Positions 4,184 through 60,663 of a DNA stretch of 64,000 nt are shown in pieces. A program made the position numbers and the translations under genes. The stretch comes from an uncultured Candidatus Saccharibacteria bacterium (GTDB lineage: Bacteria; Patescibacteriota; Saccharimonadia; Saccharimonadales; JBBQAJ01), in NCBI GenBank assembly GCA_964593805.1, contig CAZQHP010000001.1, positions 192,091 through 256,090 on the forward strand, given 5' to 3'. Position 1 is the stretch's first letter. Each line of letters starts with the position of its first letter. Under the pieces are notes generated by a model that was not told the origin of the DNA, made no database searches, and saw only the letters and a list, made by a program, of their open reading frames with translations.

Positions 4184-5094
4184 GTTTTGAAAATATAGTC
4201 TAGTAGAGCCATGCGCATGTATAGGCCGTTTTTGACCTGCAGGAAATATTTAGCTCTTGGGTCTGCGTCTACGGAAACTTCAATTTCATTTACACGAGGC
4301 AAGGGGTGCAAGATTATAGCGCCTTTTTTCATCTTTTGAGCAATTGGCAGGGTCAAAACAAAACTGTCTTTCACCGCCATGTAGTCTTCAATAAGCTTAA
4401 ATCGTTCTTTCTGGACGCGGGTCATGTAGAGCACGTCCACTTTTCCGATCACCTCGTCCCAAGAATTGTGAACAGAATATTTAACCCCGCTTTTTTTCAA
4501 TAATGCTTCATGATCTTTGGGCAGCTGCAAGCTTTTGGGCGCAATCAAATATAGCTCAACATCGTATATCGCCAGTAACTGCATGAGCGAATGAATAGTG
4601 CGGCCGTTTAGAAGATCCCCAACCAGCGCAATTTTTAGACCATCAATTTTTCCCATGGTTTGCTTTATAGTGAAAAGGTCAAGCAAGGCTTGCGTGGGGT
4701 GTTCACCAGTTCCGTCGCCGGCATTTATGATGGGCACGCGCGAAACGTTACCAGCACGTTCGGCGGCACCGTCTTCAGGGTGACGTAGCACTATGGCATC
4801 GGCATAGGTGCTGATAGTTATGATGGTATCTTCTAAAGTTTCGCCCTTGATTGCCGAAGAAAACTGACCAGCGTTTTCGGTGCTGATAAGGTGCGCGCCA
4901 AGGTTTTGGATAGCTGTTTCAAATGATAAACGGGTGCGCGTGCTTGGTTCATAAAAAAGCGTTGCAATAGTCAGATGCTCCAGCGGTTTTGGGTAGTCGG
5001 CCAAAGGCATTTCTGAAAACACGCTAGCACTAGAAATTAATTTGTCTAGTAACTCTTTGTCCAAAAATTGTTTGACCGAAATAATATGTTTCAT
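4180..5094 (-). CDS. pyrB: aspartate carbamoyltransferase catalytic subunit
   Basis: [17 protein letters not shown] and HPLPRV motifs. Likely start is [10 protein letters not shown] at 5094; the track ORF runs to 5202. No pyrI follows. Confidence 0.9.
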
Positions 5095-5168
5095 AAAACC
5101 CTTGCATAAGGTTAAAGCAAAAGTCTTGCAACTACAACTCCTAGAAAAATATGATAGGCTAAGGTCTA

Positions 5169-5744
5169 GTGAAAATACTATTCCTAAGACATGGTGCCAC
5201 AAAACTCAACCAAGAAGGCAAATTAAATGGCCAGATTGACGAGCCGCTGGCGACATTGGGCTTTGAGCAGGCTGAAGTAGCGGCTGGGATTGTGCCAAAA
5301 TCAGTTAAAGAAATCAGAGCCTCGTCTATGCTGCGTGCTGTTCAGACCAGCACTGTCATAAGCAAAGCCTTGGGCATACCACTGCTTACCCATGATGCAT
5401 TACGTGAGATAAATATGGGTTCGTTTGCTGGAAAATCATGGGCTGGTATTGAGACTGGTCAAAAATTCAAGCGCATACACCGCTCGATGCAATTTGATTA
5501 TAAGGAAGATGGTGGTGAGTCAGCACCGGAATTTAGAGATAGAGTAATCGGATTTGCGGAAGGAGTCGATGGTCAATATGGTGACCACGAATTGCTTATA
5601 GTAGCGCATGGTGGCGTGCAACGGTTGTTTGATTTACTTCAAGGCCAAGAAAACCAATCAGAAATTGAAAATGCGGTCTTGCTGGAGTTTGATTTGAGCG
5701 CAATCATAGCAAACGCGAATCTATATATTACTCCCACTCCGTAG
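5169..5744 (+). CDS. histidine phosphatase family protein (phosphoglycerate-mutase-like)
   Basis: N-terminal LRHGAT (RHG catalytic motif) and a later AHGG block. 191 aa. Confidence 0.8.
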   Translation: MKILFLRHGATKLNQEGKLNGQIDEPLATLGFEQAEVAAGIVPKSVKEIRASSMLRAVQTSTVISKALGIPLLTHDALREINMGSFAGKSWAGIETGQKFKRIHRSMQFDYKEDGGESAPEFRDRVIGFAEGVDGQYGDHELLIVAHGGVQRLFDLLQGQENQSEIENAVLLEFDLSAIIANANLYITPTP

Positions 5745-7635
5745 TTGCCGGGGGTTTGGAAGTTAGGTCTATGAATACCTGGCCAATTCCAGGTACCTCA
5801 GTTTGTATTCGCGCAGTAACTTTCACTATGAAATCAAACGGTAAATCACGCTCGGGCAGCATGGGCTGAACCGTCATGAAGGTTGAAGTTGTAACAGGGC
5901 GGAGGACGATTGAGCGCTCACCAGGCTTGCCAAAAGACAGGGGCAAAAGCACCACCGGGAACTGGCTTATAGTTTTTGCGAGGTCGAAGCCGCGCATTTC
6001 TTCCCAGACAATTCTGTCAGCGTGTTGCAACTGGGCAATTTCAGCTGGTGCCACGAACGTGGGCGTGATTGTAAGATTTTCAATTGGCTGGTTTCCAAGC
6101 GCCACAGTGACTCGGTTTAGGTCATCTCGAAATTTTGCCGGCAGGCTTTTTGCTAGTTGCCCAAGTGTTTCCCATGAAGCAGTAGTTTGCAATGCCACAG
6201 CGGCTACATGCGAACGCTCGTCACCGCCCACACCGACGTTGCGCACGGGTAAAAGCCTGGCTAAAACTTTGTCTTTGGTGTTTGCGCCGTCCAAGTAATC
6301 CTGAATAAGCTTTTCAGTTTGTTCCGAGTCGGTTTTCTCGCTACCATTGGCGCACAGGATTCGCACCGCCAGGCCGGGGCCGGGAAATGGCTGTCGCTCA
6401 ACCACTTCTGCCGGCAAGCCCAAATGCTGGCCGACCGCACGCACTTCGTCTTTGAACAGCTCATCCAGCGGCTCAATCAACAGCCCGCGCTCCTTCAGTT
6501 CTTGCACTTCGCGTACTTGATTGTGATGAGTTTTTATCAGTGCCGTATGACTGCCACCTTTGCTGTATCCGCTTTCTATCCTGTCGGCGGCGTTGGTGCC
6601 TTGCAAAAGCAGAGCTTCTTCTAACCCAAGACCTGTTATCAAACGATTCTGAACGTCTATAAATGCTTTGCCGATAATCTGCCTTTTCTTTTGCGGGTCT
6701 ACCACGCCAGCCAAAGGAGTAAGAAAATCATCAGAAGCACCGACTTTTTTTACTGACACGCCCACATGTTTGAGGAGTTTTATGACGCCCGTGTCCTCAT
6801 GCCGCATCAGGCCATTGTCTATGTAATACGCGTGTAGTTTTTCGCGCGGTATCTCCGTGGCAGCCAGCGCCGCGCTGACGGAAGAATCAACACCTCCACT
6901 TACAAAGGCAATCACATGGCGACCCTTTGCTTTGGCTTGAATATCTTTCCGGAGTTGCGCAACCAATTCATCCATCTGATGGTCCAAAAATCCCTGGCTT
7001 GGTTTTAGCTTTGCAATGCCCTGCAGAAAGTTCTTGAATACTTGATAACCCTCCGGCGTGTCGTCAAAAACTTCCGGGTGGAACTGGACGGCCACTGTGT
7101 TGCCACGAGCAATTGCCGAATATACCGTTCTGCCGTCGTCAAGCTCATGCTGTCCGATAACCTTAAAATCTTTCGGAACCTCACTTACAAAGTTGCCATG
7201 TGTAAACAGGGCGCTGAAATTGGCTTTTGTGCCCGCGAAAAGCGGGTGATTAGTATCAACGGCTGTGATGACCCGGCCGTCTTGGCGTGATGTACCGCGA
7301 ACTACTTTGCCGCCAAGCTGCGAAGCCGCCGCGTGCAAGCCGTAGCAGATACCCAGGATAGGCATATTTAACTGCCAAATTTTTGCGTCAGGCAAAGGTG
7401 CATCCACTGCTTGCGAACTGGCGGGACTGCCAGAAATAATAACTGCTTTATATTTTTCTTGGAGTTCGGATGCCGGAGTATTGAGCGGCAGCACAACCGT
7501 GGGATAGCCCAGACGCTCGCAAGCTTTTTTGACTAAGTCTACATACTGACCGCCCGCGTCTAAAACCGCTACAACTGCCTTTGCGCTGGCTACTTGGTCT
7601 TTCATTACGTCATTATACCAGATAAGATGTTGCAT
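5728..7635 (-). CDS. guaA: GMP synthase (glutamine-hydrolysing), long form
   Basis: GATase nucleophile region GICYGLH, PP-loop SGGVDSSV, C-terminal ...TTEWE. An alternative start, MKDQV, lies at 7605. The 3' end overlaps the convergent phosphatase gene by 17 nt. Confidence 0.9.
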   Translation of the reverse strand: MQHLIWYNDVMKDQVASAKAVVAVLDAGGQYVDLVKKACERLGYPTVVLPLNTPASELQEKYKAVIISGSPASSQAVDAPLPDAKIWQLNMPILGICYGLHAAASQLGGKVVRGTSRQDGRVITAVDTNHPLFAGTKANFSALFTHGNFVSEVPKDFKVIGQHELDDGRTVYSAIARGNTVAVQFHPEVFDDTPEGYQVFKNFLQGIAKLKPSQGFLDHQMDELVAQLRKDIQAKAKGRHVIAFVSGGVDSSVSAALAATEIPREKLHAYYIDNGLMRHEDTGVIKLLKHVGVSVKKVGASDDFLTPLAGVVDPQKKRQIIGKAFIDVQNRLITGLGLEEALLLQGTNAADRIESGYSKGGSHTALIKTHHNQVREVQELKERGLLIEPLDELFKDEVRAVGQHLGLPAEVVERQPFPGPGLAVRILCANGSEKTDSEQTEKLIQDYLDGANTKDKVLARLLPVRNVGVGGDERSHVAAVALQTTASWETLGQLAKSLPAKFRDDLNRVTVALGNQPIENLTITPTFVAPAEIAQLQHADRIVWEEMRGFDLAKTISQFPVVLLPLSFGKPGERSIVLRPVTTSTFMTVQPMLPERDLPFDFIVKVTARIQTEVPGIGQVFIDLTSKPPATTEWE

Positions 7636-7660
7636 AATTGCTTTACATCACAAATTATTT

Positions 7661-8791
7661 GTGCTAAAGTTAAATCCTAGTATGCCAATGCTAGAAAAGT
7701 CGAAAATTTCCAAGAACCGAACCGCTAATCGCTCCAATCGGAGCGTTTTTTTTGCCAAAAAATCAGCCCAGCTTTTCCTGAGTGACGGCACAACTTTTCC
7801 TGGCCTGGCGCCGTCCTGGCAACAAGGCAGCTTCACGGGCGAGGTCGTTTTCAATACCGGTATGACTGGTTACGTGGAGTCATTGACCGACCCGTCATAT
7901 AGCAACCAAATCCTGGTGTTTACCTACCCTATGATTGGCAACTATGGCGTTGATCAGACATCGGCTGAATCATCAAAAATCCAAGTCAGCGGCGTGGTCG
8001 TAAGTACGGCTGCAGAAAAATGGAGCCACGCCGCCGCCGACCAATCGCTGCTGGAATGGCTAGAATCTCAAAATATCCCACTGCTCGCTAGTGTTGATAC
8101 GCGGGCTCTGACCAAACATTTACGCAGCCGCGGCACCATGCAAGGCGCGATTAGCGATTCGCCCATTGTGACGGATGACTTGGTTGCCGCAGCTGCTTCT
8201 CCTCCAACCTTTGAACCGGTCATTTATAACAGGCAACATACCAAGACAGTTATTTTGGTTGATTGCGGCGCCAAAGAAAACATCGTGCGTGAACTCCTAA
8301 AACTTCCAGTGCGGATAAAACGCGTGCCAGCAAATTATGATTACAGCCTGGAAAAGTATGACGGCGTGTTGTTTTCTAACGGTCCTGGCAACCCCACTGA
8401 TTATCAGCCAACCATAGACATTGCCAAAAAAGCTATGAAAAAAGACAAACCCCTATTTGGCATTTGCCTGGGCAGCCAAATTATGGGGCTGGCTGCCGGT
8501 GCCAGGACATACAAGCTGCCGTTCGGCCACCGCGGCCACAATCAGCCATGCATGGAGATAAAAACCAAACGCTGTTTTGTAACCAGCCAAAACCACGGCT
8601 ATGCCATAGACGAAAAAACTTTGCCGGCTGGCTGGGAAGTTTCTTTCAAAAACCTCAACGATAATTCAGTAGAGGGCATAGAACATAAAACCAAACCTTT
8701 CTTTTCCGTGCAATTTCATCCGGAAGCGTGCCCAGGGCCTACGGACACTGCCTGGCTGTTTGAAAAATTCGCCGAGGTTCTAAAGATATGA
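7661..8791 (+). CDS. carA: carbamoyl-phosphate synthase small (glutaminase) subunit
   Basis: GEVVFNTGMTGYVESLTDPSY, GICLGSQ and VQFHPEA motifs. Start uncertain: GTG at 7661 or ATG at 7682/7688. Confidence 0.9.
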   Translation: MLKLNPSMPMLEKSKISKNRTANRSNRSVFFAKKSAQLFLSDGTTFPGLAPSWQQGSFTGEVVFNTGMTGYVESLTDPSYSNQILVFTYPMIGNYGVDQTSAESSKIQVSGVVVSTAAEKWSHAAADQSLLEWLESQNIPLLASVDTRALTKHLRSRGTMQGAISDSPIVTDDLVAAAASPPTFEPVIYNRQHTKTVILVDCGAKENIVRELLKLPVRIKRVPANYDYSLEKYDGVLFSNGPGNPTDYQPTIDIAKKAMKKDKPLFGICLGSQIMGLAAGARTYKLPFGHRGHNQPCMEIKTKRCFVTSQNHGYAIDEKTLPAGWEVSFKNLNDNSVEGIEHKTKPFFSVQFHPEACPGPTDTAWLFEKFAEVLKI

Positions 8792-11700
8792 AAATTCGCA
8801 AAGTAGTGATTTTGGGTTCTGGCGGTCTGCGCATAGGCCAGGCCGGCGAGTTTGATTACTCCGGTTCCCAAGCCATCAAAGCGCTCAAAGAAGAAAAAAT
8901 CGAAACAGTGCTGATTAATCCAAACATAGCTACCGTGCAGACAGACCCAGACATGGCGGACCGAGTGTACTTTGAACCTTTAAACGTAAAAACCGTCACG
9001 AAAATATTGCAAAAAGAAAAACCAGACGCCATCATGCTCAGTTTCGGCGGCCAGACCGCGCTAAATCTAGGTTTGAGCCTGCATGACGCCGGCGTATTCA
9101 AAAAACTCGGCATCCGCGTGCTTGGTACCCCTGTTGAGGTTATTAAAACAACTGAAGACCGCGATTTGTTCAAAAATGCCCTGGAGAAAATAGGCACCAA
9201 AACTGCCCGCAGTATCGCTGCTTATACGGTCAACGAAGCTCGCGCCGCGGCTCGGGAAATTGGCTACCCAATCATGCTGCGTTCCGGCTTTAGCCTGGGC
9301 GGCCTGGGTTCTGGCCGTATCAATAATGACCAAGAACTTTTGCGCAAAGTGAACGAAGTGCTCCGGGTCGTACCGCAAGTGCTGATTGAAGAATACCTGG
9401 CCGGCTGGAAAGAAGTGGAATACGAAGTAGTACGAGACACTGGCGGCAATACCATAACGGTCTGCAACATGGAAAACTTTGACCCCATGGGCATCCACAC
9501 CGGCGAAAGTATTGTGATAGCACCGTCCCAAACGCTCACTAACGAGGAATACCACCGGCTGCGCGAGGTCGCCATCAAGACCATAAACCACCTGGGAATA
9601 ATTGGCGAATGCAACATCCAATACGCGCTGAATCCGGAAAATGGCGACTACCGAGTGATTGAGGTTAATGCCCGGCTGAGCCGTTCCAGCGCGCTGGCTT
9701 CCAAAGCAACAGGTTATCCGCTGGCGTTTGTGGCCAGCAAACTGATGCTTGGCTACCGCCTGCACGAACTCAAAAACGCCGTCACCGGCACGACTTCGGC
9801 GTTTTTTGAACCGGCTCTGGACTACGTGGCCGTCAAAATGCCACGCTGGGATTTGTCAAAACTAAAATCCAGCGATCACACGATTGGCACGGAAATGAAA
9901 AGCGTCGGCGAAGTCATGGCGCTTGGAAGAAGTTTTCCCGAAGCCTTGCAAAAAGCAATCCGCATGCTAAACATAGGCGCCCAGGGACTAACCGCGCATC
10001 CGTTTGAATTCAAAGACCCAGCCAAAGAAATCGCTCATCCCACCGATAAACGAGTATTCGCAATTCACGATGCTCTCAAACTAGGGGTTTCCGTAGACCG
10101 TATTCACGAACTTTCCAAAATTGATAATTGGTTTTTGGAACATCTTGCCGACATGGTAGAAACCGCCAGCAGCATAAAGCGCCAGCCCCTAGCCAAAGAA
10201 TTACTGCTCGAAGCCAAACAGAAAGGCTTTGCGGACAACGTAATCGCAAAACTTAAAAATACCAAAGAGGAAAACATAAGACAGCAGCGCCAAAAATTCG
10301 GGATAGTGCCTTACATAAAACAGATTGATACCCTAGCCGGTGAATTTGACGCCGCAACCAACTACCTGTACACCACCTATCATGGCAATACCCACGACGT
10401 TGAGCCTCTCAAAAAACCAATTATAGTTCTAGGCTCGGGTCCGTACTGTATTGGTTCTTCGGTTGAGTTTGATTGGTGCGCTGTCAACACCGCCAAAACC
10501 ATCCGCAAACACAAACTGCCAACCGTCATGGTAAATTCCAATCCAGAGACCGTGTCTACGGACTTTGACAGGTCTGACCGGCTGTACTTTGAAGAACTTT
10601 CACTGGAACGAATACGAGATATTGCCGATTTTGAACATCCAAAATCAATTGTGGTTTCGGTCGGCGGGCAGATTGCCAACAACCTTGCGCTGCCGCTGCA
10701 TCAGGCAGGTTATCCCATTCTTGGAACACCGCCGGGTCAAATTGACCGGGCGGAGGACCGCCAGAAATTTTCATCTATGCTAAACCGATTGGGGATAGAT
10801 CAACCAACCTGGGATGAAGTTTCTACACTGGCGCTGGCAAAAAAGTTTGCCGCCAAGGTCGGCTATCCAGTGCTAATCAGGCCTTCATATGTGCTATCCG
10901 GCGGTGCCATGAACGTTGTGACCAACGAACAGGAACTCAAACAATACCTCCAAGAAGCGGCGCATCTATCTCCGGACCATCCGGTAGTAATTTCCCAATT
11001 CATCGCCAACGCCAAAGAACTTGAAATTGACGGCGTGGCCCAAAATGGCGAACTCATCATATATGCCGTGTCCGAGCATATAGAAAATGCCGGCATTCAC
11101 TCGGGCGATGCCACCGTGGTTTTTCCGGCACAGCGGCTATACCTGGAAACCGTCCGCCAAGCCAAAAACATTACCAAGCAAATTATCAGCAACCTGAATA
11201 TAACCGGTCCGTTCAACGTGCAGTTCATAGCTAAAGACAACGAACTAAAAGTAATCGAGTGCAACGTGCGGGCTTCACGGTCATTTCCGTTCGTGTCCAA
11301 AGTCAGCAACCATAATTTTATAGAAATTGCCACCGAAGCCATGCTAGGCATAAAAAATAACAATACATACCAAACGCTTGAGCTGGATCACGTAGGCGTA
11401 AAAAGCCCGCAGTTTTCGTATAACCGGCTCAAAGGCGCCGATCCGGTGGCTGGCGTGGAAATGGCGTCTACTGGAGAAGTGGCTTGTTTTGGCGACGACC
11501 TGGCTAGCGCATTCTATGCCTCGTGGCTGGCAACCGAACAGCACATCAAAGCTAAGACTATGTTTTTAAGTTTGCCGGACGAACAAAAGTTCAAATTCGT
11601 GGACGAAGTCGCGGCTCTAGTGGCGCAAGGCTGGCAAATATACGCTACCGCCGGAACGCACCAGTTTTTTAAGCAGCACGGTATCAAAACAATCAAATTG

Positions 11701-33587: not shown

Positions 33588-34163
33588 ATGATTGCGACAC
33601 TAACTGGCACAGTTGCCGAAAAACTGTCTGAGCTCTTGGTTCTAGATGTTGCTGGCGTGGGTTATGGTCTGCTGGTAACAGGCGAAGACTTTGGCCGGCT
33701 AGCTGTAGGCGAGCAGGCAAAAATATATGTTTATGAGAACGTCAGGGAAAATGTCTATGATTTATACGGGTTTTGCAGTCTGGACAGCAAGCGTTTGTTT
33801 GAACAGCTACTGGAAGTGAACGGCGTTGGGCCTAGGATGGCGCTAAATATACTGGGTGTCGGCAGTGCCAATGCAGTACGAGCGGCAATTGCCGCCGGCG
33901 ACACTAAATTCATGCAAGCCGCCAGCGGCGTAGGCAAACGAGTTGCCGAACGCGTAATTGTAGAGCTTAAAGACAAAGTGGGGCTAGTTAGCTCTGAGGG
34001 CGCAACTGATTTCTTGCAAGGTCCCGCCATGCAAGACGAAGCCATGCAAGCACTGGTAGCCCTCGGCTTTACCGCCCAAGATGCTGCCATTGCACTTCAA
34101 AAAGTCGACGACAAACTGCCTACAGAAGACCGGGTTAAACAAGCGCTAAAGGGTGTCAAATAA
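33588..34163 (+). CDS. ruvA: Holliday junction DNA helicase RuvA
   Basis: MIATLTGTV start, HhH region [14 protein letters not shown]-terminal domain III. Confidence 0.9.
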
Positions 34164-35191
34164 TGGCGATTGAGCGAATTGTGCAGCCGGTTGCGGGGGA
34201 CGACGACTCTAAAGAGCAGGAGCTGGAAGTTACGCTTCGGCCTTGGGATTTTGCTAACTACATTGGGCAAGAGCGGCTGGTAAAAAATCTAAAACTGGCA
34301 ATTGCGGCTGCCAAAAAACGCGGTGAGCCAGTGGACCATGTTCTGCTGTACGGACCGCCCGGACTGGGCAAAACCACTACGGCTAGCGTAATTGCCCACG
34401 AAATGGGCGCTAATATCCGAATAACTAGCGGACCGGCAATTGAACGAGCCGGGGATTTGGCCAGCCTGCTTACCAACCTACAGGACGGCGACATACTTTT
34501 TATAGATGAAATTCACCGTTTGCATCGCTCCGTGGAGGAAGTGCTGTATAGCGCTATGGAAGATTTCAAACTGGATATTATGCTTGGCAAAGGCCCCAGC
34601 GCCCGAAGTTTGCGGCTGGATTTACCTAAATTTACACTGATTGGGGCCACAACTCGTACCGGCGCTCTGGCCGCGCCGCTGCGAGACCGTTTTGGTCTGC
34701 AACACCGGCTAGAGTTTTATAGCAAGGACGAGATTGCTCAGATTATTCTACGGGCTGCCGGAATCCTAAAAGTCAAAATCAGTCCCGAAGCCGCAGCCCA
34801 CTTAGCCCAGCGCGCCAGACTGACGCCGCGAATTGCCAACCGTTTGCTCAACAGAGTACGCGATTACGCCGACGTAAATGGCGACGGCATAATTGACCAA
34901 ACCATTGCTAATAAAGCTCTGGCCTTGCTGGAAATAGATTCCCTGGGGTTGGACCCGGCAGACAGACGTGTTTTGGAAGCAGTCATAGAACACTACAAAG
35001 GCGGCCCAGTGGGGCTAGATACTATTGCGGCATTAACGGGGGACGAACGTACTACAATTGAGGATTTTTATGAACCGTACATGATGCAAATCGGCCTGCT
35101 GGAGCGCACGCCGCGCGGCCGCAAAGTAACCCCGAAAGCCTACAAACACCTGGGCAAAAACCAGTCGGCAGAGCAAAAGGAATTGTTATAA
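34163..35191 (+). CDS. ruvB: Holliday junction DNA helicase RuvB
   Basis: Walker [18 protein letters not shown], and the RuvB winged-helix C-terminus. Confidence 0.95.
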
Positions 35192-46309: not shown

Positions 46310-46837
46310 GGCGGCTGGTGATACGGCGCCAGCCGGTACGGCGTTTTTAACTTCTTTGAGTGGCTCTTGAACAACTATTTTGCGGTCGGTAATCTCTACA
46401 ATCTGGCTGCGGTCAATGCTCAGGTTGCCACCAGTCAAGCTTTTTAAAATACTTTGGCCCACGTAAATTTTCTGCACGTACATTGCAGCGTCATCTACCG
46501 CGTAATCATTTACTTTGCCCAGCCGCTGTTTGTTGACAGTTACCACAGGCTTGCCAATCAGCGTGAATTGGAGCTTCAACACTTTTTCCAACCGTATCAG
46601 TTCCTCGGGATCAACCAAAACTTCGTGGTCGTTTACCACAAATCCACGCTCCACGCGGTCGCGAATGTCCTGCGTCAGCAGAATCAACTGTTTTTTTTCA
46701 AATCGGTCGTCGCAGTAAAATCCCTCAACCTTTAGATTGTTGGGATTAATGATTGGTTCGGTGGCAGTAGCCACCTGCCCGCCAGTCCGCAGAGACAGAA
46801 CTGATTGGTTTAAAAGTGTTGAACTAAGTTGCAGCAT
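46307..46837 (-). CDS. PRC-barrel domain protein (two repeats)
   Basis: 176 aa. Two repeats of the PRC-barrel-like pattern (SVLSLRTGGQVATATEPIINPNNLKVEGFY and LIGKPVVTVNKQRLGKVNDYAVDDAAMYVQKIYV). Confidence 0.55.
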   Translation of the reverse strand: MLQLSSTLLNQSVLSLRTGGQVATATEPIINPNNLKVEGFYCDDRFEKKQLILLTQDIRDRVERGFVVNDHEVLVDPEELIRLEKVLKLQFTLIGKPVVTVNKQRLGKVNDYAVDDAAMYVQKIYVGQSILKSLTGGNLSIDRSQIVEITDRKIVVQEPLKEVKNAVPAGAVSPAA

Positions 46838-46867
46838 ACTTTAATAAGTATAGCGTAGCATTGCTGT

Positions 46868-46875
46868 GTATAAAT
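46868..46875. repeat. target-site duplication, left copy (GTATAAAT)
   Basis: The identical octamer is repeated directly at 52254..52261, immediately outside both inverted repeats. Confidence 0.85.
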
Positions 46876-46899
46876 GACGAGTATGTAGCCAAGACAACC
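46876..46899. repeat. left terminal inverted repeat
   Basis: GACGAGTATGTAGCCAAGACAACC. The reverse complement of 52230..52253 reads GAGGAGTATGTAGCCAAGACAACC. Confidence 0.9.
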
Positions 46900-47024
46900 A
46901 AACTAAATCATGTGACATTCAGTGACTAATATGATTTTGTCATTGATTTGATAATAGTATAGTTTATATTTTTGTAACCATAAGCATAATAAAAAGCTGT
47001 TCCTGTCAATGGCGTAGATGTATA

Positions 47025-48122
47025 ATGTTTCATATGGACACCGGAAAGCTTCTAAAAGTCATCGAGGACATCCTAACCGAAGAAACGTCGGCGAAGATAC
47101 AGTCATTACTTCAAAACATTGTTAGCTACTATGACGCAAGCGACCCTGCCTCACTGAACACGACAAAAGAGCAGATTTACGTAGCCGTAACTAACTCAAG
47201 AATTAGTGAGTATGCCTTGAGCGATTTTCAGGTTCTAGTGCGCCTGAACGTTGAAAGACTATTTGGACCTGGGCTATACCAGCACCTAGATGACGTTCTT
47301 AGTGCTCAGGCTCATGAGGTGAAAGTAAAACTACAGCAATTAGTTACTGAACGTGAGACTGCACTTGCGTCATTGACAGAAGTAAATGTGGCCTTAAGTA
47401 AGTTTGAATTTGAGTCTAGGGCTTTAGATGACAGCCATTATGAAATAGGCTTCGTGCTACCAGCAAGTTACTCGGATCTTGCTAAGACAGAAAAGGCTAT
47501 CAAAGATTTGGGGCAGCTACTTAACGCATTATCAGACGCTGTGGACGTGCAACAGCCATTAAAAATCAAATATGTCAGTAACGGTTCAATAGAAATTTTT
47601 CTAGATGTAGCAGTAGAGCTTGCTCAGAACTTTGATGTTGTTATTGACTATGCACTTAAGGTGTATGGTTCAATAGAAATGTTTAAGGGCATAAAGAGGC
47701 AGTATAAAAAATACTCTATAGCACGCAGAAAGAAAGCTGAAAAACTGGCAGATGACGAAAAGAAAGAGCAAGTTGAGAAACTAGTTGATGAGCTAATCCA
47801 GGCTCTAGGCATAAAAGAAGAGGCTGATAAAACTGCTGTTAGGATATTGTTTAAACAATTCCTAAAGCATATTGAAGCCGGTGTTGGTGCTGAGGTTCAT
47901 ACTCCAAAAACAGAAGAACCTGAAGAGCCTGCATCTGAAGCAAAACCTGCCGAGAAGAAGGCTTATAAAGAAAGTCTAAAGGCATACGAGAAGAAAAAAG
48001 AGATTGACTCAAGAAATCGTGCAATATTTATCTTACAGCAAAATAACTTCTACGGAATGGACACCAAGTTTCTGGATGACGGTGTTAGTGAGACAGAAAA
48101 CGAAGAGGACGGTCAGAACTAG
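47025..48122 (+). CDS. hypothetical protein, helical with Lys/Glu-rich C-terminal third (passenger gene)
   Basis: 365-aa ORF (the start may be MDTGKLL at 47034). No recognisable catalytic motif. Its stop overlaps the stop of the convergent P-loop gene by 4 nt. Confidence 0.6.
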   Translation: MFHMDTGKLLKVIEDILTEETSAKIQSLLQNIVSYYDASDPASLNTTKEQIYVAVTNSRISEYALSDFQVLVRLNVERLFGPGLYQHLDDVLSAQAHEVKVKLQQLVTERETALASLTEVNVALSKFEFESRALDDSHYEIGFVLPASYSDLAKTEKAIKDLGQLLNALSDAVDVQQPLKIKYVSNGSIEIFLDVAVELAQNFDVVIDYALKVYGSIEMFKGIKRQYKKYSIARRKKAEKLADDEKKEQVEKLVDELIQALGIKEEADKTAVRILFKQFLKHIEAGVGAEVHTPKTEEPEEPASEAKPAEKKAYKESLKAYEKKKEIDSRNRAIFILQQNNFYGMDTKFLDDGVSETENEEDGQN

Positions 48123-48694
48123 CTCATAACGAGACCATGGTCTCGTAGTGCCAATTCAACCAGCGATACTCTGTCAGCAATACTCACTGGTGGCAGAGCA
48201 ACAACTTCAAGTCCGGATTCTCTATATGCTTCTTCAATGGCAGCGTGCGTGAACAACGCTTCTTCCGCAGTCTCACGTCTTACTTCTGTTGCCATATACT
48301 GTTCAAGTGGTTGGCAGATAAGTGCAAAGCTATAGCGTGCAAACCATATCTTACGCTCAACATCAGGTATCAAGTCCTCAAAGCCGTTGATCCGTCCATA
48401 GGCAATGTTATCAACTAGGCTACGGTCTAGAAAAGTTACACCAGCTTCATAAGGAATTACGTCTTCAAGAGCCTCTGACTCAACAATGGCTAACGGTGCA
48501 AAGTTAGGGTAGTCAAGCCAAGGCACTTTCGGTTCGTAATCTTCGTGCCTTGCTGCAAAATCTAGCTCACGGTCTATTACTCGTGTAGCTGGCTCATCAA
48601 CAAAGTAGGCGTCGGGAAAACGCTCGTGCAAGGCTTCAACAAGTGTGGTTTTGCCAGTACAAGGTCCGCCAGAAATAGGTATTTTGTGTATCAT
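48119..48694 (-). CDS. AAA_28 / NadR-like P-loop ATPase or small-molecule kinase (passenger gene)
   Basis: 191 aa. Walker A SGGPCTGKTTL at residues 8-18 and a later hydrophobic-Asp strand (VTFLDRS). Start overlaps the stop of the upstream PurB::HAD gene (ATGA). Confidence 0.65.
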   Translation of the reverse strand: MIHKIPISGGPCTGKTTLVEALHERFPDAYFVDEPATRVIDRELDFAARHEDYEPKVPWLDYPNFAPLAIVESEALEDVIPYEAGVTFLDRSLVDNIAYGRINGFEDLIPDVERKIWFARYSFALICQPLEQYMATEVRRETAEEALFTHAAIEEAYRESGLEVVALPPVSIADRVSLVELALRDHGLVMS

Positions 48695-50862
48695 CGGGCG
48701 TATAGCCTTGCGAGTGGTTGCAGATTTTCCCAGTGGTATGTTGGTTTTGGACCGTATGGGTCTGGTGCGGTTTCGCCAACTAAGGCGGTTTTCATTCCTA
48801 GAGCCATAGCAGCACCAACATCAGCGTCTTGGTCATCGCCTACATATATACTGCGTTCTGGGTTGATTCCAAGCTTGCCAAGTGCGATTGCAAGTGGTTC
48901 TGGGTGTGGTTTGCGCCGTTTTACATCGCCACCACCGATAATGACATCAAATGAATCACTAAAGCCGTGCAAATCAAGCACACGACCTAGAGATATTGGA
49001 CCTCTTGTTGTAACTAGTCCAGTTACTTTGCCACTATCACGCACAGTCTGAATAACTTCTTTAGATTCTGGTGGTGCGTAGAACATATGGTCAAAGCTGC
49101 CAGTTACTTTGCCGTTAGCCGTCATGAAGTCTTCAACTGTTAGCTTGTTTGAGCTACGAACATTATGCTCGGCAACCATTGCTTCAACCATTTTATTGAA
49201 GTCGTGTATCTTAGAGTATTCTTTGATTTCTTCTTCCGAAAAACCAGATTCAAACTCTCCAAAAATATGTGTGAGCTTTGCAATAACCTCGTCTTTAACT
49301 CCGAAGTGAAGTGTGTCGTCAAGGTCAAACAATACTGCGTCAATGCTTGTCGATTCATCAAGTACACCTCGTCTTAGAATCAGCTTCGCTGCGTGCCAGC
49401 CAAGTACCGCTTGACGAGCTTTCTCGCCAGCAACACCAACATACATATCTGGTGTAACCGCAGCAACACGGTCTTTTAATTCGCCGTCAGGCAAGGCTTC
49501 GTCAATAACTTCACGAATATCTGCTAGGTCAAGTTTCTTACCTTGTGTTAGAGCAACCACTTTGTCGTAAGCGTCTGGATCGCCTGATACACGCCCAGCA
49601 GTCTGAACTAATTCGCTCAACACTTCGGCGGACTGATTGAGTGTTTCTCTAGCACCGTCTTCATCAACAGCTAGTCGGTCAAGCTGAACTGCAAAATAAT
49701 TATAACCAGCAACAACTCGTCCGATCATATCGCCGTAGGCACGCTGCCAGCCATGGTCTGATAAATCTCTTTCGTGGCGGCTTGCTACAAGACCCTCTGG
49801 CGCACGGCTCATCAAAGCAATCGCTTGTTCAAACAGGGATTCGGCGTTCTCTAATCTCCAAGGGTTAATCTTGTGAGACATCGTGGAAGAGCCTTTTTCG
49901 CCAGCTACAAGTCGTTGCGTTAGCTTGTTGCCTAGTATCTGCAACCAAACATTGTCAGTGGCGTCTTTGCCGACCAGTGCAAGCCTAGAAACGGTTGATA
50001 GTAAATCAGTTACTGCTAGGTGGTCGTTACGTTGGTTTTCTACTGGTGCGTAGGTAAAGCCCATACTCTCAACGAAGTCTTTTGAATACGCGTCATAGTC
50101 AAAGTCTGGAAATAGTACAGACATCGGATTATGGTTACCGACTGCACCACTAAACTTACCACTCAAACGCTTTCCGTCTAGTTCTTCGGCTACTTTTGTA
50201 ATATCTGAAAGCAAGTAACCGAACTGCTTACCAACAGTGGTTGGAGAAGCTTTTTGAGCGTGCGTAACGCCAAGTGTAGGAGTATCTGCGTATACAGTCG
50301 CTAAATGTGCTAAACGGTCAGCTACACGTGCAACCGAAGGGACAATAACTTTATTCGTAGCGTCACGAAGCATGAGGTTATAAGCAAGGTTATTGGTGTC
50401 TTCCGAAGTCATACCGAAGTGAACCCACTCTTTGAGATGTCCAAGACTATATGCGTTTAATTGTTCTGCAAGATAAACTTCAACTGCCTTTACGTCGTGT
50501 TCCAATGGTGGCTGACCCTTGTAGCCCAAATGGTCAAGGCGAATTACTACGCTTGGATCAAAATGGTCTTCGTCATATAAGCTGCGAAGCAAAAGTTTGT
50601 CTGCGCTAGTCATCTCAATATCCACTGGACCACGTTCAGCGAGGTTAATAAGAGCTTCTACCTCTACTTCGGCACGATAACGGTGCAACGCACCCTCGGA
50701 AGTTATATTATCTAGCTCCCAAGTAAAAGGCTTCTCACGTCCTGCGAGGACTGTTCCTTGATTCAAGCTATCTAGAACTAGTTGTTCTGGGTCTGGGTGG
50801 TTCGCTAGAGGGTTGTATGCTTCTGGCGAGTCGCTATATTGGCTTAGTATTTCTGCTGACAC
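48691..50862 (-). CDS. purB: adenylosuccinate lyase fused to a C-terminal HAD-IA phosphatase domain (passenger gene)
   Basis: The N-terminal ~480 aa carry HFGMTSEDTNN and the fumarate-lyase signature GSSTMSHKINP. The C-terminal ~230 aa carry HAD motifs I FDLDDTL, II GLVTTR, III KRRKPHPEP and IV YVGDDQDAD. Confidence 0.85.
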   Translation of the reverse strand: MSAEILSQYSDSPEAYNPLANHPDPEQLVLDSLNQGTVLAGREKPFTWELDNITSEGALHRYRAEVEVEALINLAERGPVDIEMTSADKLLLRSLYDEDHFDPSVVIRLDHLGYKGQPPLEHDVKAVEVYLAEQLNAYSLGHLKEWVHFGMTSEDTNNLAYNLMLRDATNKVIVPSVARVADRLAHLATVYADTPTLGVTHAQKASPTTVGKQFGYLLSDITKVAEELDGKRLSGKFSGAVGNHNPMSVLFPDFDYDAYSKDFVESMGFTYAPVENQRNDHLAVTDLLSTVSRLALVGKDATDNVWLQILGNKLTQRLVAGEKGSSTMSHKINPWRLENAESLFEQAIALMSRAPEGLVASRHERDLSDHGWQRAYGDMIGRVVAGYNYFAVQLDRLAVDEDGARETLNQSAEVLSELVQTAGRVSGDPDAYDKVVALTQGKKLDLADIREVIDEALPDGELKDRVAAVTPDMYVGVAGEKARQAVLGWHAAKLILRRGVLDESTSIDAVLFDLDDTLHFGVKDEVIAKLTHIFGEFESGFSEEEIKEYSKIHDFNKMVEAMVAEHNVRSSNKLTVEDFMTANGKVTGSFDHMFYAPPESKEVIQTVRDSGKVTGLVTTRGPISLGRVLDLHGFSDSFDVIIGGGDVKRRKPHPEPLAIALGKLGINPERSIYVGDDQDADVGAAMALGMKTALVGETAPDPYGPKPTYHWENLQPLARLYAR

Positions 50863-51158
50863 GCTAACTCCTTAAATGATTACCTAGACTATATAATTAA
50901 CAGATAAGCAAAGCAAGCATAAGCAAATTGGCTAAATAAAGCGTTCATAACTAATTCGTATTAATATATATCTACCTTATATACGAAGTATATATAAAAG
51001 GAGCTAAAAACTTATGAAAAAAACAGATGAAAATCAAAAAGATAGTATGGAACCGCGGTTCTCTATTATCTCTACCTGAAAATTGGGTACTTCCTCTATA
51101 TGTATATATAAAGGAGAGGAAGTAAAAGTAAGTAGATTACAGATTAAATGATACCGGC

Positions 51159-51184
51159 AACAGTTCCTCTCGGCAGGAACTGTT
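51159..51184 (-). terminator. hairpin downstream of the transposase gene
   Basis: aacagttcct-ctcggc-aggaactgtt, a perfect 10-bp stem about 55 nt after the transposase stop. Weak U-tract, so its function as a terminator is uncertain. Confidence 0.3.
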
Positions 51185-51237
51185 AGGACAAGTCTGTATA
51201 ATGGTGCTTATGGGTAAAAAGAAGTTTCTAGAAATAA

Positions 51238-52092
51238 TTAAGCTCGCTTCCCAGCCTTTGCCAAAAGGAGCGGAAAAATCGTTTGATGACGGTGATTATA
51301 ACGAAAGGCAAATTCTGCGACGTATGAACCAAGATAATAAGGAGAAACTGCGTGGTAAGTCCCATCCAAAGAACGTTTCAACTGGCCGAAAAAGCCCTCC
51401 ACGTGGTTCGTCGTAACACCGTCTTTTACAAACTCCTTAGCAATATGCCTAACTGATTTGTGATTATAAAATTGTTTGACCTGTAGATGTTTATAAATCT
51501 TGCTTTCGTCAGTATGTAGCATTGAACCATCATCTACATTCTCACGTAGAAATGGAAGAGCGTGTTGTGAGTTGGCTCTAGGTACAACCTGAGTCCTAAT
51601 CTCTCCACCTACTTCCAGAGCCGCCATAACGGGTGTTTTATGGTCTTTATAGGCTTGCCTGCGTTTACCGCCTATATAGGCTTCATCTACTTCAATCGGT
51701 GTGCCTAAAAAACCAAGTTTACCGCTTTCATGCATAAGAACCCGTATCATCTTGGCCATTCTATGTGCTGTTTTATAAGAAACACCGACTTGTCTTTGTA
51801 TTTCTAGAGCTGCGACACCGTTCTTAGACACGGAGAATAGATATAACGCGTGAAACCATAACGACAGTGGTGTCGTAGACTTTTCAAAGATTGTGCCAAC
51901 TAGCGGATAGATCTGTTGCCTGCAGGTGGCACACTTGAAGGACATACGGTTTTTAACACGCCAGAACTTCGTACCAATAACACCGCACTTAGGGCAAGTC
52001 TTTAGGTCGCCATAACGATAGTCAAAGACGAGTTGCAGGCACGACTCATCATCAGGAAAGTCTGCCCTCAAGTCCTTAATGGTGTATCTCAT
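51238..52092 (-). CDS. IS1595-family (ISXO2-like) DDE transposase
   Basis: N-terminal zinc ribbon CPKCG...CATC, a helix-turn-helix region, then IEVDEAYIGGKRR and HTDESKIY blocks. 284 aa. Confidence 0.85.
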   Translation of the reverse strand: MRYTIKDLRADFPDDESCLQLVFDYRYGDLKTCPKCGVIGTKFWRVKNRMSFKCATCRQQIYPLVGTIFEKSTTPLSLWFHALYLFSVSKNGVAALEIQRQVGVSYKTAHRMAKMIRVLMHESGKLGFLGTPIEVDEAYIGGKRRQAYKDHKTPVMAALEVGGEIRTQVVPRANSQHALPFLRENVDDGSMLHTDESKIYKHLQVKQFYNHKSVRHIAKEFVKDGVTTNHVEGFFGQLKRSLDGTYHAVSPYYLGSYVAEFAFRYNHRHQTIFPLLLAKAGKRA

Positions 52093-52229
52093 GCTATATA
52101 TTATATGCCAATAAAGGTTGGCGTCAAGCGTAAACTAACAGATACTATCAAGTACTAGAGCATGTATAACGAACAACAGCAAATTTCTGTGGATATGTGT
52201 AGTAAATATGTGAAAGTACTAGCCTGTTA

Positions 52230-52253
52230 GGTTGTCTTGGCTACATACTCCTC
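52230..52253. repeat. right terminal inverted repeat
   Basis: ggttgtcttggctacatactcctc, the reverse complement of the left IR with one mismatch. Confidence 0.9.
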
Positions 52254-52261
52254 GTATAAAT
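52254..52261. repeat. target-site duplication, right copy (GTATAAAT)
   Basis: Identical to 46868..46875. Confidence 0.85.
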
Positions 52262-60112: not shown

Positions 60113-60187
60113 TGGTGCGGGATGGGAGAGTCGAACTCCCGTCCAAAGTTTGGAAAACTTTTATATTAACCGCTATACGAATCCCGC
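60113..60187 (-). tRNA. tRNA-Gly (anticodon UCC), CCA encoded
   Basis: Reverse complement: gcgggat-tc-gtat-agcggtta-atat-a-aaagt-ttTCCaa-acttt-ggac-gggag-ttcgact-ctccc-atcccgc-a-cca. Confidence 0.85.
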
Positions 60188-60345
60188 AACAGGGGCAATT
60201 ATAACAGTTGTATCTCGATTTGCTAAAGACACCCCAAAGAGGAGTGCAAGCATAAGCACAATGACTTATCCACAAGCTATTTGCAATTTTCGCAAGCTAG
60301 TACTATGCTGAGCTTACAAAACAGTTAAGTGGGAGGTTAAACCAC

Positions 60346-60663
60346 ATGAACGTACAACTAAAATCACCTAAAGAAATGGCAATCACTAGTATTGAGTGGT
60401 TCGTCGTAGCGGCATTGCTTGTGCTGGGCTTGCGCTTTGTTTTTCGCCTTTTTGGCGCGGAAGGCAGTGGCGACGGTTTCGTAGCTTGGCTATACGACAC
60501 CAGCAATGTGCTTTTACAACCGGTTCGCGGCGTGTTTCCCGAAACGGCTGTCAGGAGCAAGAATGCGTTTGAATTCGCAACTCTGTTCGCAGCAGTCGCC
60601 TACATGGGCGTAGGCAACGTAGCAATGGGCGTGGTGGAACGCTGGTCACCGAAGCGTAAATAG
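60346..60663 (+). CDS. small membrane protein, possibly YggT-like
   Basis: 105 aa with two TM helices. RFVFRLFGA...LLQPVRGVFP is reminiscent of YggT repeats. Confidence 0.45.
   Translation: MNVQLKSPKEMAITSIEWFVVAALLVLGLRFVFRLFGAEGSGDGFVAWLYDTSNVLLQPVRGVFPETAVRSKNAFEFATLFAAVAYMGVGNVAMGVVERWSPKRK

Follow-up and report, generated by a model that had tools for sequence, protein, structure and literature searches.

The stretch analysed here ("the window") comprises 64,000 nt of an uncultured Candidatus Saccharibacteria bacterium (GenBank assembly GCA_964593805.1, contig CAZQHP010000001.1, positions 192,091 to 256,090 of the forward strand), and all coordinates below are counted from its first base. 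In the divergent intergenic region between an LTD surface-protein gene and a PRC-barrel gene it carries an element of 5,378 bp (5.4 kb), at bases 46876-52253, which is an intact transporter insertion sequence (tIS) of the IS1595 family, one more of a group already known. Taken alone, the element is a routine IS1595 tIS; the interest lies in the behaviour of its clade, in particular in the choice of target sites, which goes beyond what an earlier note on this DNA had described.

Ends, transposase and passenger genes

The terminal inverted repeats are located at 46876..46899 at the cargo end (GACGAGTATGTAGCCAAGACAACC, + strand) and at 52230..52253 at the transposase end (GAGGAGTATGTAGCCAAGACAACC, - strand). 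The second is the reverse complement of the first in 23 of 24 positions, the sole mismatch being C/G at position 3, and the match stretches to 26 of 28 positions when extended. Within the window the degenerate 24-mer occurs in exactly two copies, against 0.00 expected from 100 shuffles. Both repeats are abutted by the octamer GTATAAAT, perfect and in direct orientation, at 46868..46875 (next to the cargo-end repeat) and 52254..52261 (next to the transposase-end repeat). This octamer is by itself common enough, with 4 copies in the window vs 1.8 expected, and it is the position, together with the empty site described below, that gives it weight, rather than any rarity. The G+C content of the element is 42.9% vs 48.5% in the rest of the window, below all 479 equal-sized windows elsewhere in the stretch, the minimum of which was 44.6%.

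The transposase gene (51238..52092, - strand) encodes a product of 284 amino acids (aa), full length in comparison with its homologues (284-288 aa), which contains both CPKCG...CATC and IEVDEAYIGG. A zinc ribbon and a DDE domain were recognised by Pfam DDE_Tnp_IS1595 (PF12762; 3e-35, 121.9 bits, cutoff 27), Pfam Zn_ribbon_IS1595 (PF12760; 4e-10, 40 bits, cutoff 25.4) and NCBIfam NF033547 (184 bits, cutoff 75). Across 40 aligned transposase homologues, D136, D195 and E232 are invariant or nearly so and the zinc-ribbon residues C33, C36, C54 and C57 are conserved; the sequence around the third catalytic residue is TTNHVEGFFGQLKR. About 1,900 homologues were found at E ≤ 1e-10, many of them named as Saccharibacteria.

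Duplications of 8 bp and the Zn-finger/DDE architecture are characteristic of the IS1595 family (PMC8101967). ISfinder divides the family into the subgroups ISPna2, IS1595, ISSod11, ISNwi1, ISNha5, ISH4 and IS1016, and the zinc ribbon is found in all of them except IS1016. The tIS, which carry passenger genes, are so far known only in the IS1595 and IS66 families (TnCentral preprint, 10.1101/2021.05.26.445724); the groups marked '+' in ISfinder are IS1595 members with passenger genes, according to Siguier, Gagnevin and Chandler (2009) as cited in PMC8101967. The window element conforms to this definition, with three passenger open reading frames (ORFs) unrelated to transposition inside its repeats and the whole 5,378 bp absent from a related locus, L134. 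It shares with the described tIS of the family a single Zn-ribbon/DDE transposase, short terminal inverted repeats, an 8-bp duplication and passenger genes placed between the transposase gene and the far repeat. It differs from them in its host, a Saccharibacterium (Patescibacteria), in its long transposase-side end (~160 nt), where a DnaA-box-like motif lies internally and the inner half of the repeat occurs a second time, and in its strongly sequence- and orientation-specific target choice, of which no report was found in the literature on the IS1595 family. Composite organisation was not found, as one transposase gene was identified and the repeat has just two copies in the 64 kb; nor was Tn7-like organisation, as no TnsC, TnsD or TniQ domain was detected in any ORF of the element.

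These results agree with all that the earlier note had claimed for the structure of the element, namely 24-bp inverted repeats and a perfect 8-bp target duplication at the same positions, about 4.3 kb of passenger DNA between the repeats, and an IS1595 transposase from a family that makes 8-bp duplications. Its statement on composition held for the lower G+C inside the element, whereas the 53-58% given for the flanks was overstated and applies only to a few local 500-nt windows.

Read from 52253 down to 46876, the element consists of the repeat (nt 1-24), the internal motif, a strong predicted promoter, the transposase gene, a 375-bp AT-rich spacer, a two-gene operon, a convergent orphan ORF and the second repeat. 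The first gene of the operon (48691..50862, - strand) encodes a 723-aa fusion of an adenylosuccinate-lyase-like part (residues 1-485) with a HAD phosphatase (505-720), matched by Pfam Lyase_1, ASL_C and HAD_2. The lyase domain carries the fumarate-lyase signature GSSTMSHKIN and matches adenylosuccinate lyases in PDB at 5e-65; it is ~31-37% identical to ordinary PurB, and the fusion scores 343 bits with NCBIfam PurB, below the cutoff of 446. Such lyase-HAD fusions are rare, with three full-length clusters and two fragments among the best 150 hits listed from 1.84 billion representatives. The second gene (48119..48694, - strand) overlaps the stop codon of its upstream gene and encodes a 191-aa AAA_28 P-loop protein that is NadR-kinase-like (Pfam PF13521, 3e-25), with weak NadR and thymidylate-kinase-like matches. 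The orphan ORF (47025..48122, + strand; 365 aa) has no family assignment: no match was obtained in the family libraries searched, and its single-sequence AlphaFold2 model was too poor for a fold search (predicted local distance difference test 41, predicted template modelling score 0.23). PADLOC returned no defence family for any passenger protein, PHROGs gave generic lyase, HAD and kinase-like matches only, and an Rfam scan of the element and its flanks (E ≤ 0.1) revealed no RNA family. Our best guess from these domain matches is that the cargo may constitute a nucleotide-related module.

Promoters were predicted by consensus scan. The predicted transposase promoter (TTGACG-16-TATAAT, 11 of 12 consensus matches; 52100..52127, - strand) is followed after 7 nt by the ATG of the gene, and the mRNA is therefore probably leaderless. 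Bases 52116-52125 (- strand), which overlap the -35 and spacer of this promoter, repeat the inner half of the terminal repeat (GCCAACC). Among 20 aligned relatives the inner half of the repeat, which reads ACAACC, ACAAGT, ACACCC or ACAAGG depending on the element, co-varies with this internal copy at the -35. Such co-variation points to a further site of transposase binding, by which the transposase would probably repress its own gene. It should be added that the PRC-barrel gene, similarly to the transposase gene, starts 7-10 nt after a predicted -10 hexamer (intervals 46837-46847 and 52092-52100, respectively), which suggests that the mRNAs of both may be leaderless or near-leaderless.

Insertion as one unit and the neighbouring genes

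The empty site is represented by the syntenic locus L134, where the PRC-barrel protein is 95% identical and the DNA ~84-88% identical to the window. There, the LTD gene is separated from the PRC-barrel gene by 98 bp, the element is absent, and the spacer reads ...gttgaaaagtATTTATACacag..., so that both flanks of the window are joined through one octamer (ATTTATAC). The insertion and the 8-bp duplication are both confirmed by this site: the 5,378 bp entered the LTD | PRC-barrel region as a single unit, duplicating 8 bp. The position of the element in this divergent region had been correctly given in the earlier note, and the empty-site check proposed there yielded a syntenic locus without the whole block and with the single octamer kept.

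The precise lack of 5,378 bp and one octamer in L134 also contradicts the view of the block as ancestral genes caught between two insertion sequence remnants (a decayed composite transposon), or as an island placed by another recombinase, for which it could be said that 80% of the element is taken up by passenger genes and that the difference in G+C from the host is only moderate. Such an origin would further have to account for the presence of only one transposase, with no second insertion sequence or integrase, for relatives that combine other cargo with the same end architecture and perfect 8-bp duplications, and for a relative with 6.2 kb of cargo that is near-identical at several sites. 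We consider it extremely improbable.

Apart from the window, the same sequence is recorded in ENA contig ERZ27284378 (776,748 bp) and in Logan contig SRR8863434, both 100% identical. No further copies of the element or of its PurB-HAD gene were found; all records represent the same locus, in three assemblies. The earlier note had called the insertion recent, which can be upheld in a relative sense only: the element is absent from a relative of ~85% identity, and L004, the nearest relative among the transposons, has other cargo and a transposase core of only 87% identity.

The predicted PRC-barrel promoter (TTTATA-16-TATACT; 46847..46874, - strand; consensus scan only) has its -35 inside the duplicated octamer, and the insertion would therefore leave it intact. 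Since it lies wholly within the retained octamer and flank, the rewiring of this promoter, which had been thought probable, was not supported. The outermost genes of the element point inwards at both ends, so that no read-out into the neighbours is expected. On the LTD side, a hybrid promoter seen by eye (TTGTCT of the repeat at 52232-52237, a 17-nt spacer and TATAAA of the duplication at 52255-52260) was not called by the scan and is not relied on.

Target motif and orientation among relatives

About 30 members of the clade of the element, which extends across the Saccharibacteria, were gathered from genome, metagenome and viral collections and by exact-protein look-ups; they are cited by locus number where they have to be told apart. 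Ten relatives are complete (2.1-6.3 kb). Their ends are conserved, and each is flanked by a perfect 8-bp duplication, the first two bases of which vary from element to element. The closest one, L004 (transposase 96% identical), is homologous to the window element only over nt 1-1044 and at the far repeat, and its cargo is entirely different. A Replic_Relax gene (PF13814, ~270-315 aa), which the window element lacks, lies directly downstream of the transposase gene in at least 10 elements (L004, L005-L007, L009, L010, L055, L151, L152 and the P0002 contig). Other cargo of the relatives includes MazEF, diversity-generating retroelements (bAvd, reverse transcriptase and target gene) and a nested IS3-type transposase. 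One clade element of 6.2 kb (L006, L007, L058, L059 and L096) is 99.3-100% identical at no fewer than four different flanks, which means that cargo-laden members of the clade do transpose. In this element, as also in L005 and L055, there is a MazEF pair, a Replic_Relax gene and a diversity-generating retroelement that is complete with bAvd, reverse transcriptase and target gene. Diversity-generating retroelements are abundant in Saccharibacteria.

The target sites of these elements were compared at 32 non-redundant insertion ends, with octamers read in transposase orientation. The duplicated octamer has the form nnTTATCC: TTATCC is exact at duplication positions 3-8 in 21 of the 32 ends and present with at most one mismatch in 26 of 32, the chance of the latter being 0.0046 per site. 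All 17 known cargo-side flanks start with ACA, usually ACAG. The reconstructed target is TTAT(C/N)C^ACA(G), with ^ showing the cut and C^ACA invariant; written out, the motif is TTATCCACAG. Its orientation relative to the insertion is invariant among the sampled relatives. In 12 of 17 complete targets there is an exact fit to TTATNCACA, the bacterial DnaA-box consensus, which may not be the form used by Saccharibacteria. The window target itself, TTATACACAG (46864..46873, - strand; a match to the DnaA-box consensus plus G), is kept intact on the cargo-distal side beside the PRC-barrel gene. Its 9-mer, TTATACACA, fits TTATNCACA, and the 10-mer overlaps the PRC-barrel -35 and is present once in the L134 empty site. 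Perfect TTATCCACA was counted 24 times in 330 kb of clade loci vs 2.5 expected, and 23 of these 24 coincide with an element junction or with the internal position.

The motif keeps its register and orientation across several gene contexts: it was identified in the LTD|PRC region of the window, upstream of nrdA (L005), after an NrtR-like gene (L024/L057) and a membrane-protein gene (L008), and beside a TrmB gene (L151). In a phage-like contig (L143/L158) the motif is weaker, TTGACCACA, two mismatches from the consensus. Moreover, the motif was present before insertion, both in the L134 empty site and in the unoccupied rplL | 169-aa-gene spacers of L140/L141. At the level of sequence, this comparison shows a clade-wide preference for a DnaA-box-like target, which is orientation-specific and spares the downstream promoter. 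Such targeting appears to be undescribed for the IS1595 family; no relevant paper was found on IS1595, or on any transposase, with a DnaA box as target.

Roughly between a third and a half of the sampled elements occupy one hot spot, located between rplJ-rplL and a conserved operon of a 169-aa gene, dnaX and dnaB. In many genomes the preferred site is placed immediately ahead of the -35 of this operon; in L140/L141 the hot-spot motif lies ~15-20 nt upstream of a TTGACT -35. The octamers at this site are GT-, AG-, AC- or TT-TTATCC, depending on the genome. As they agree within an element and differ between genomes, and as the cargo also differs, the hot-spot insertions represent independent events. 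Head-to-tail arrays sharing a single octamer were found in L054, L056, L062 and L068, with some older units lacking the transposase. The intact motif is re-formed only at the cargo-distal junction, and the site can consequently be hit again. The hot spot also contains cargo-like blocks with only a remnant of the cargo-side repeat (L062 7342-9843 and L056 1-135) or without a detectable repeat (L142 5403-8812 and L138 1-2644), which are probably decayed earlier insertions.

The independence of the hot-spot events is relevant to the possibility that the specificity is only apparent, i.e. that insertion is near-random and the pattern results from one ancient hot-spot insertion inherited vertically, with purifying selection elsewhere. 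The sharing of the rplL/dnaX site by many sampled elements would fit this explanation, and so would the motif-less sites of three among the five copies of the recently active element. It is contradicted by octamer pairs that match within and differ between elements with different cargo, by at least five other gene contexts with the same motif, register and orientation (in addition to the phage-like contig with its weaker form), and by empty sites that already contain the motif. Furthermore, a cut confined to a single phosphodiester bond of a 9-mer cannot be the product of selection for neutrality. We judge this explanation to be improbable.

Several observations nevertheless weigh against motif-directed insertion and have to be set beside the evidence above. 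The hot-spot insertions, about a third to a half of the sample, concern one orthologous site and are not independent evidence of sequence recognition. Copies of the recently active 6.2-kb element in L058, L059 and L096 lie at motif-less sites, on contigs ending inside the element, and the L064 insertion is at a weak motif. Motif-less insertions mean that the specificity is a strong preference, and selection against other insertions in gene-dense genomes probably sharpens its appearance. Across the window the motif is not enriched in general (13 sites with up to one mismatch vs 12.7 expected). The window's own element is recorded in a single copy, and it can therefore be regarded only as possibly mobile today. 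That DnaA or the transposase binds the motif is our inference from the sequences. Neither a dnaA gene (RDH[ST]T[VI] signature) nor a cluster of at least 4 boxes within 400 bp was found in the 1.6 Mb examined, so that TTATCCACA is a presumed DnaA box in Saccharibacteria; the literature search found nothing on DnaA boxes of Saccharibacteria. With these points considered, we assign a probability of roughly 0.8 to the reading that an intact tIS was inserted as a unit and that the transpososome of its clade targets nnTTATCC^ACA(G) in one orientation.

Two of the loci deserve separate mention. At the motif-less site of L059 (AATTGAAC), the left flank (5000-9852) is syntenic with window positions 33913-35151 at ~70% identity; the exact position of a homologous empty site for this insertion was not located in the window. 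A 2,056-bp clade member with a transposase 71% identical was found in phage-like contigs with an SU10_adaptor gene (L143-L150 and L158, IMG/VR UViG_3300002301_000036), a context that is a possible route of transfer between hosts. This element has a perfect duplication, GATTGACC, followed by ACAT. The scan of viral contigs gave one further clade member, in the same phage-like context, the rest being distant relatives.

Internal motif, possible readers and known systems

The window element carries a second, target-like motif (ATATCCACAG; 52187..52196, - strand), 58-67 nt from the transposase-proximal tip, a position at which all members of the clade conserve it. Each of the 20 aligned transposase-side ends has TTATNCACA at nt 57-66, oriented as in the target; C63, C65 and A66 do not vary, and the base that does corresponds precisely to the N of TTATNCACA. 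No such motif is present at the cargo-side ends. In IS1595 relatives of 40-50% identity there is no internal motif, the ends are short with the -35 inside the repeat, and the octamers are unrelated to the target motif. As these distant relatives lack both features, the internal motif and the target preference arose together in the clade.

The comparison shows that insertion in this clade is not random: the transpososome cuts a motif of 9-10 bp, nnTTATCC^ACA(G), the orientation of which is constant with respect to the transposase gene. Through the 8-bp stagger nnTTATCC is duplicated, and the complete motif is re-formed only at the cargo-distal junction, beside the promoter of the downstream gene, which is left intact; repeated hits at the re-formed site produce the tandem pile-ups. 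We propose that the transpososome would read the motif directly, with the cut at one fixed phosphodiester bond inside it. The internal copy, 57 nt inside the transposase end, could either provide the same reader with a further binding site or be a genuine DnaA box. In the latter case it would tie transposase expression or transpososome assembly to DnaA, as in the outside end of IS50.

Alternatively, host DnaA bound to its box might recruit or position the transposase, somewhat as Tn7 proteins use host factors, and the internal box would then allow DnaA to act in the assembly of the transpososome or in the regulation of transposase expression, coupling transposition to the state of replication initiation. 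The motif does coincide with the DnaA-box consensus, its only freely varying position being the N of that consensus, and some targets lie upstream of replication-related genes (dnaX-dnaB and nrdA). A precedent is provided by IS50/Tn5, whose outside end contains the DnaA box TTATACACA and whose transposition is stimulated by DnaA. The position of the scissile bond is difficult to reconcile with this alternative, as it falls within the 9-mer and would presumably be shielded by bound DnaA. Moreover, the window site beside the PRC-barrel gene has no evident link to replication, and the DnaA reading of the motif follows from a sequence match to a consensus that may not be that of the host. Guidance by DnaA thus seems rather unlikely to us, and direct reading by the transpososome is preferred.

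Three known systems offer themselves for comparison. The outside end of IS50/Tn5 (CTGACTCTTATACACAAGT) holds a DnaA box, and its 9-mer is identical to the cargo-side junction box of the window element. The IS50 box is part of its own end and Tn5 is not known to target DnaA boxes, whereas here the junction box comes from the target, a second box lies 57 nt inside the other end and the transposase belongs to a different family. The insertion point of Tn7 at attTn7, downstream of glmS, is distant from the sequence that is recognised, and the dedicated selector TnsD is needed together with TnsABC. Tn7 and the present clade both show site- and orientation-specific insertion that leaves a neighbouring essential gene intact, at a 'safe harbour' site; unlike Tn7, the present clade has a single transposase without an accessory targeting gene, cuts inside the motif, can use several motifs per genome and forms tandem arrays. 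IS30 and the insertion sequences that target repetitive extragenic palindromic (REP) sequences prefer short host repeats or sequences resembling their own ends. Here too the transposase itself would encode the preference, and within the element there is a sequence similar to the target, but the family is different and the motif is a conserved promoter-proximal site of regulatory type, not a repeat element or a terminal repeat.

To our knowledge, sequence- and orientation-specific targeting by a lone DDE transposase is rare. Its occurrence bears on the evolution of target selection and could serve as a compact programmable or safe-harbour insertion tool. For Saccharibacteria, the ultra-small and gene-dense genomes of which have poorly charted mobile DNA, the comparison identifies a recurrent rplL - dnaX/dnaB integration hot spot and a vehicle of horizontal transfer that carries diversity-generating retroelements. 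If the motif is truly a DnaA box, the recognition sequence of the initiator would be directly linked to the targeting and regulation of a transposon, beyond the accessory role of DnaA in Tn5. A wider and tentative proposal, which we regard as possible rather than probable, is that a single-protein DDE transposase lineage evolved to read the DnaA box, either directly or via DnaA. It would thereby have gained precise and oriented insertion that spares promoters and is limited to a few sites in each genome, landing pads ahead of replication genes that can be used repeatedly, cargo that accumulates there and is shuffled among Saccharibacteria and their phages, and an internal box coupling transposition to replication initiation. 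Under this proposal the landing-pad cargo would include diversity-generating retroelements, toxin-antitoxin pairs and metabolic genes.

Within the window, the only other perfect TTATCCACA is situated at 60266-60274, between tRNA-Gly (60113-60187, - strand) and an ORF for a 105-aa membrane protein (60346-60663); this intergenic box is a candidate unoccupied target site.

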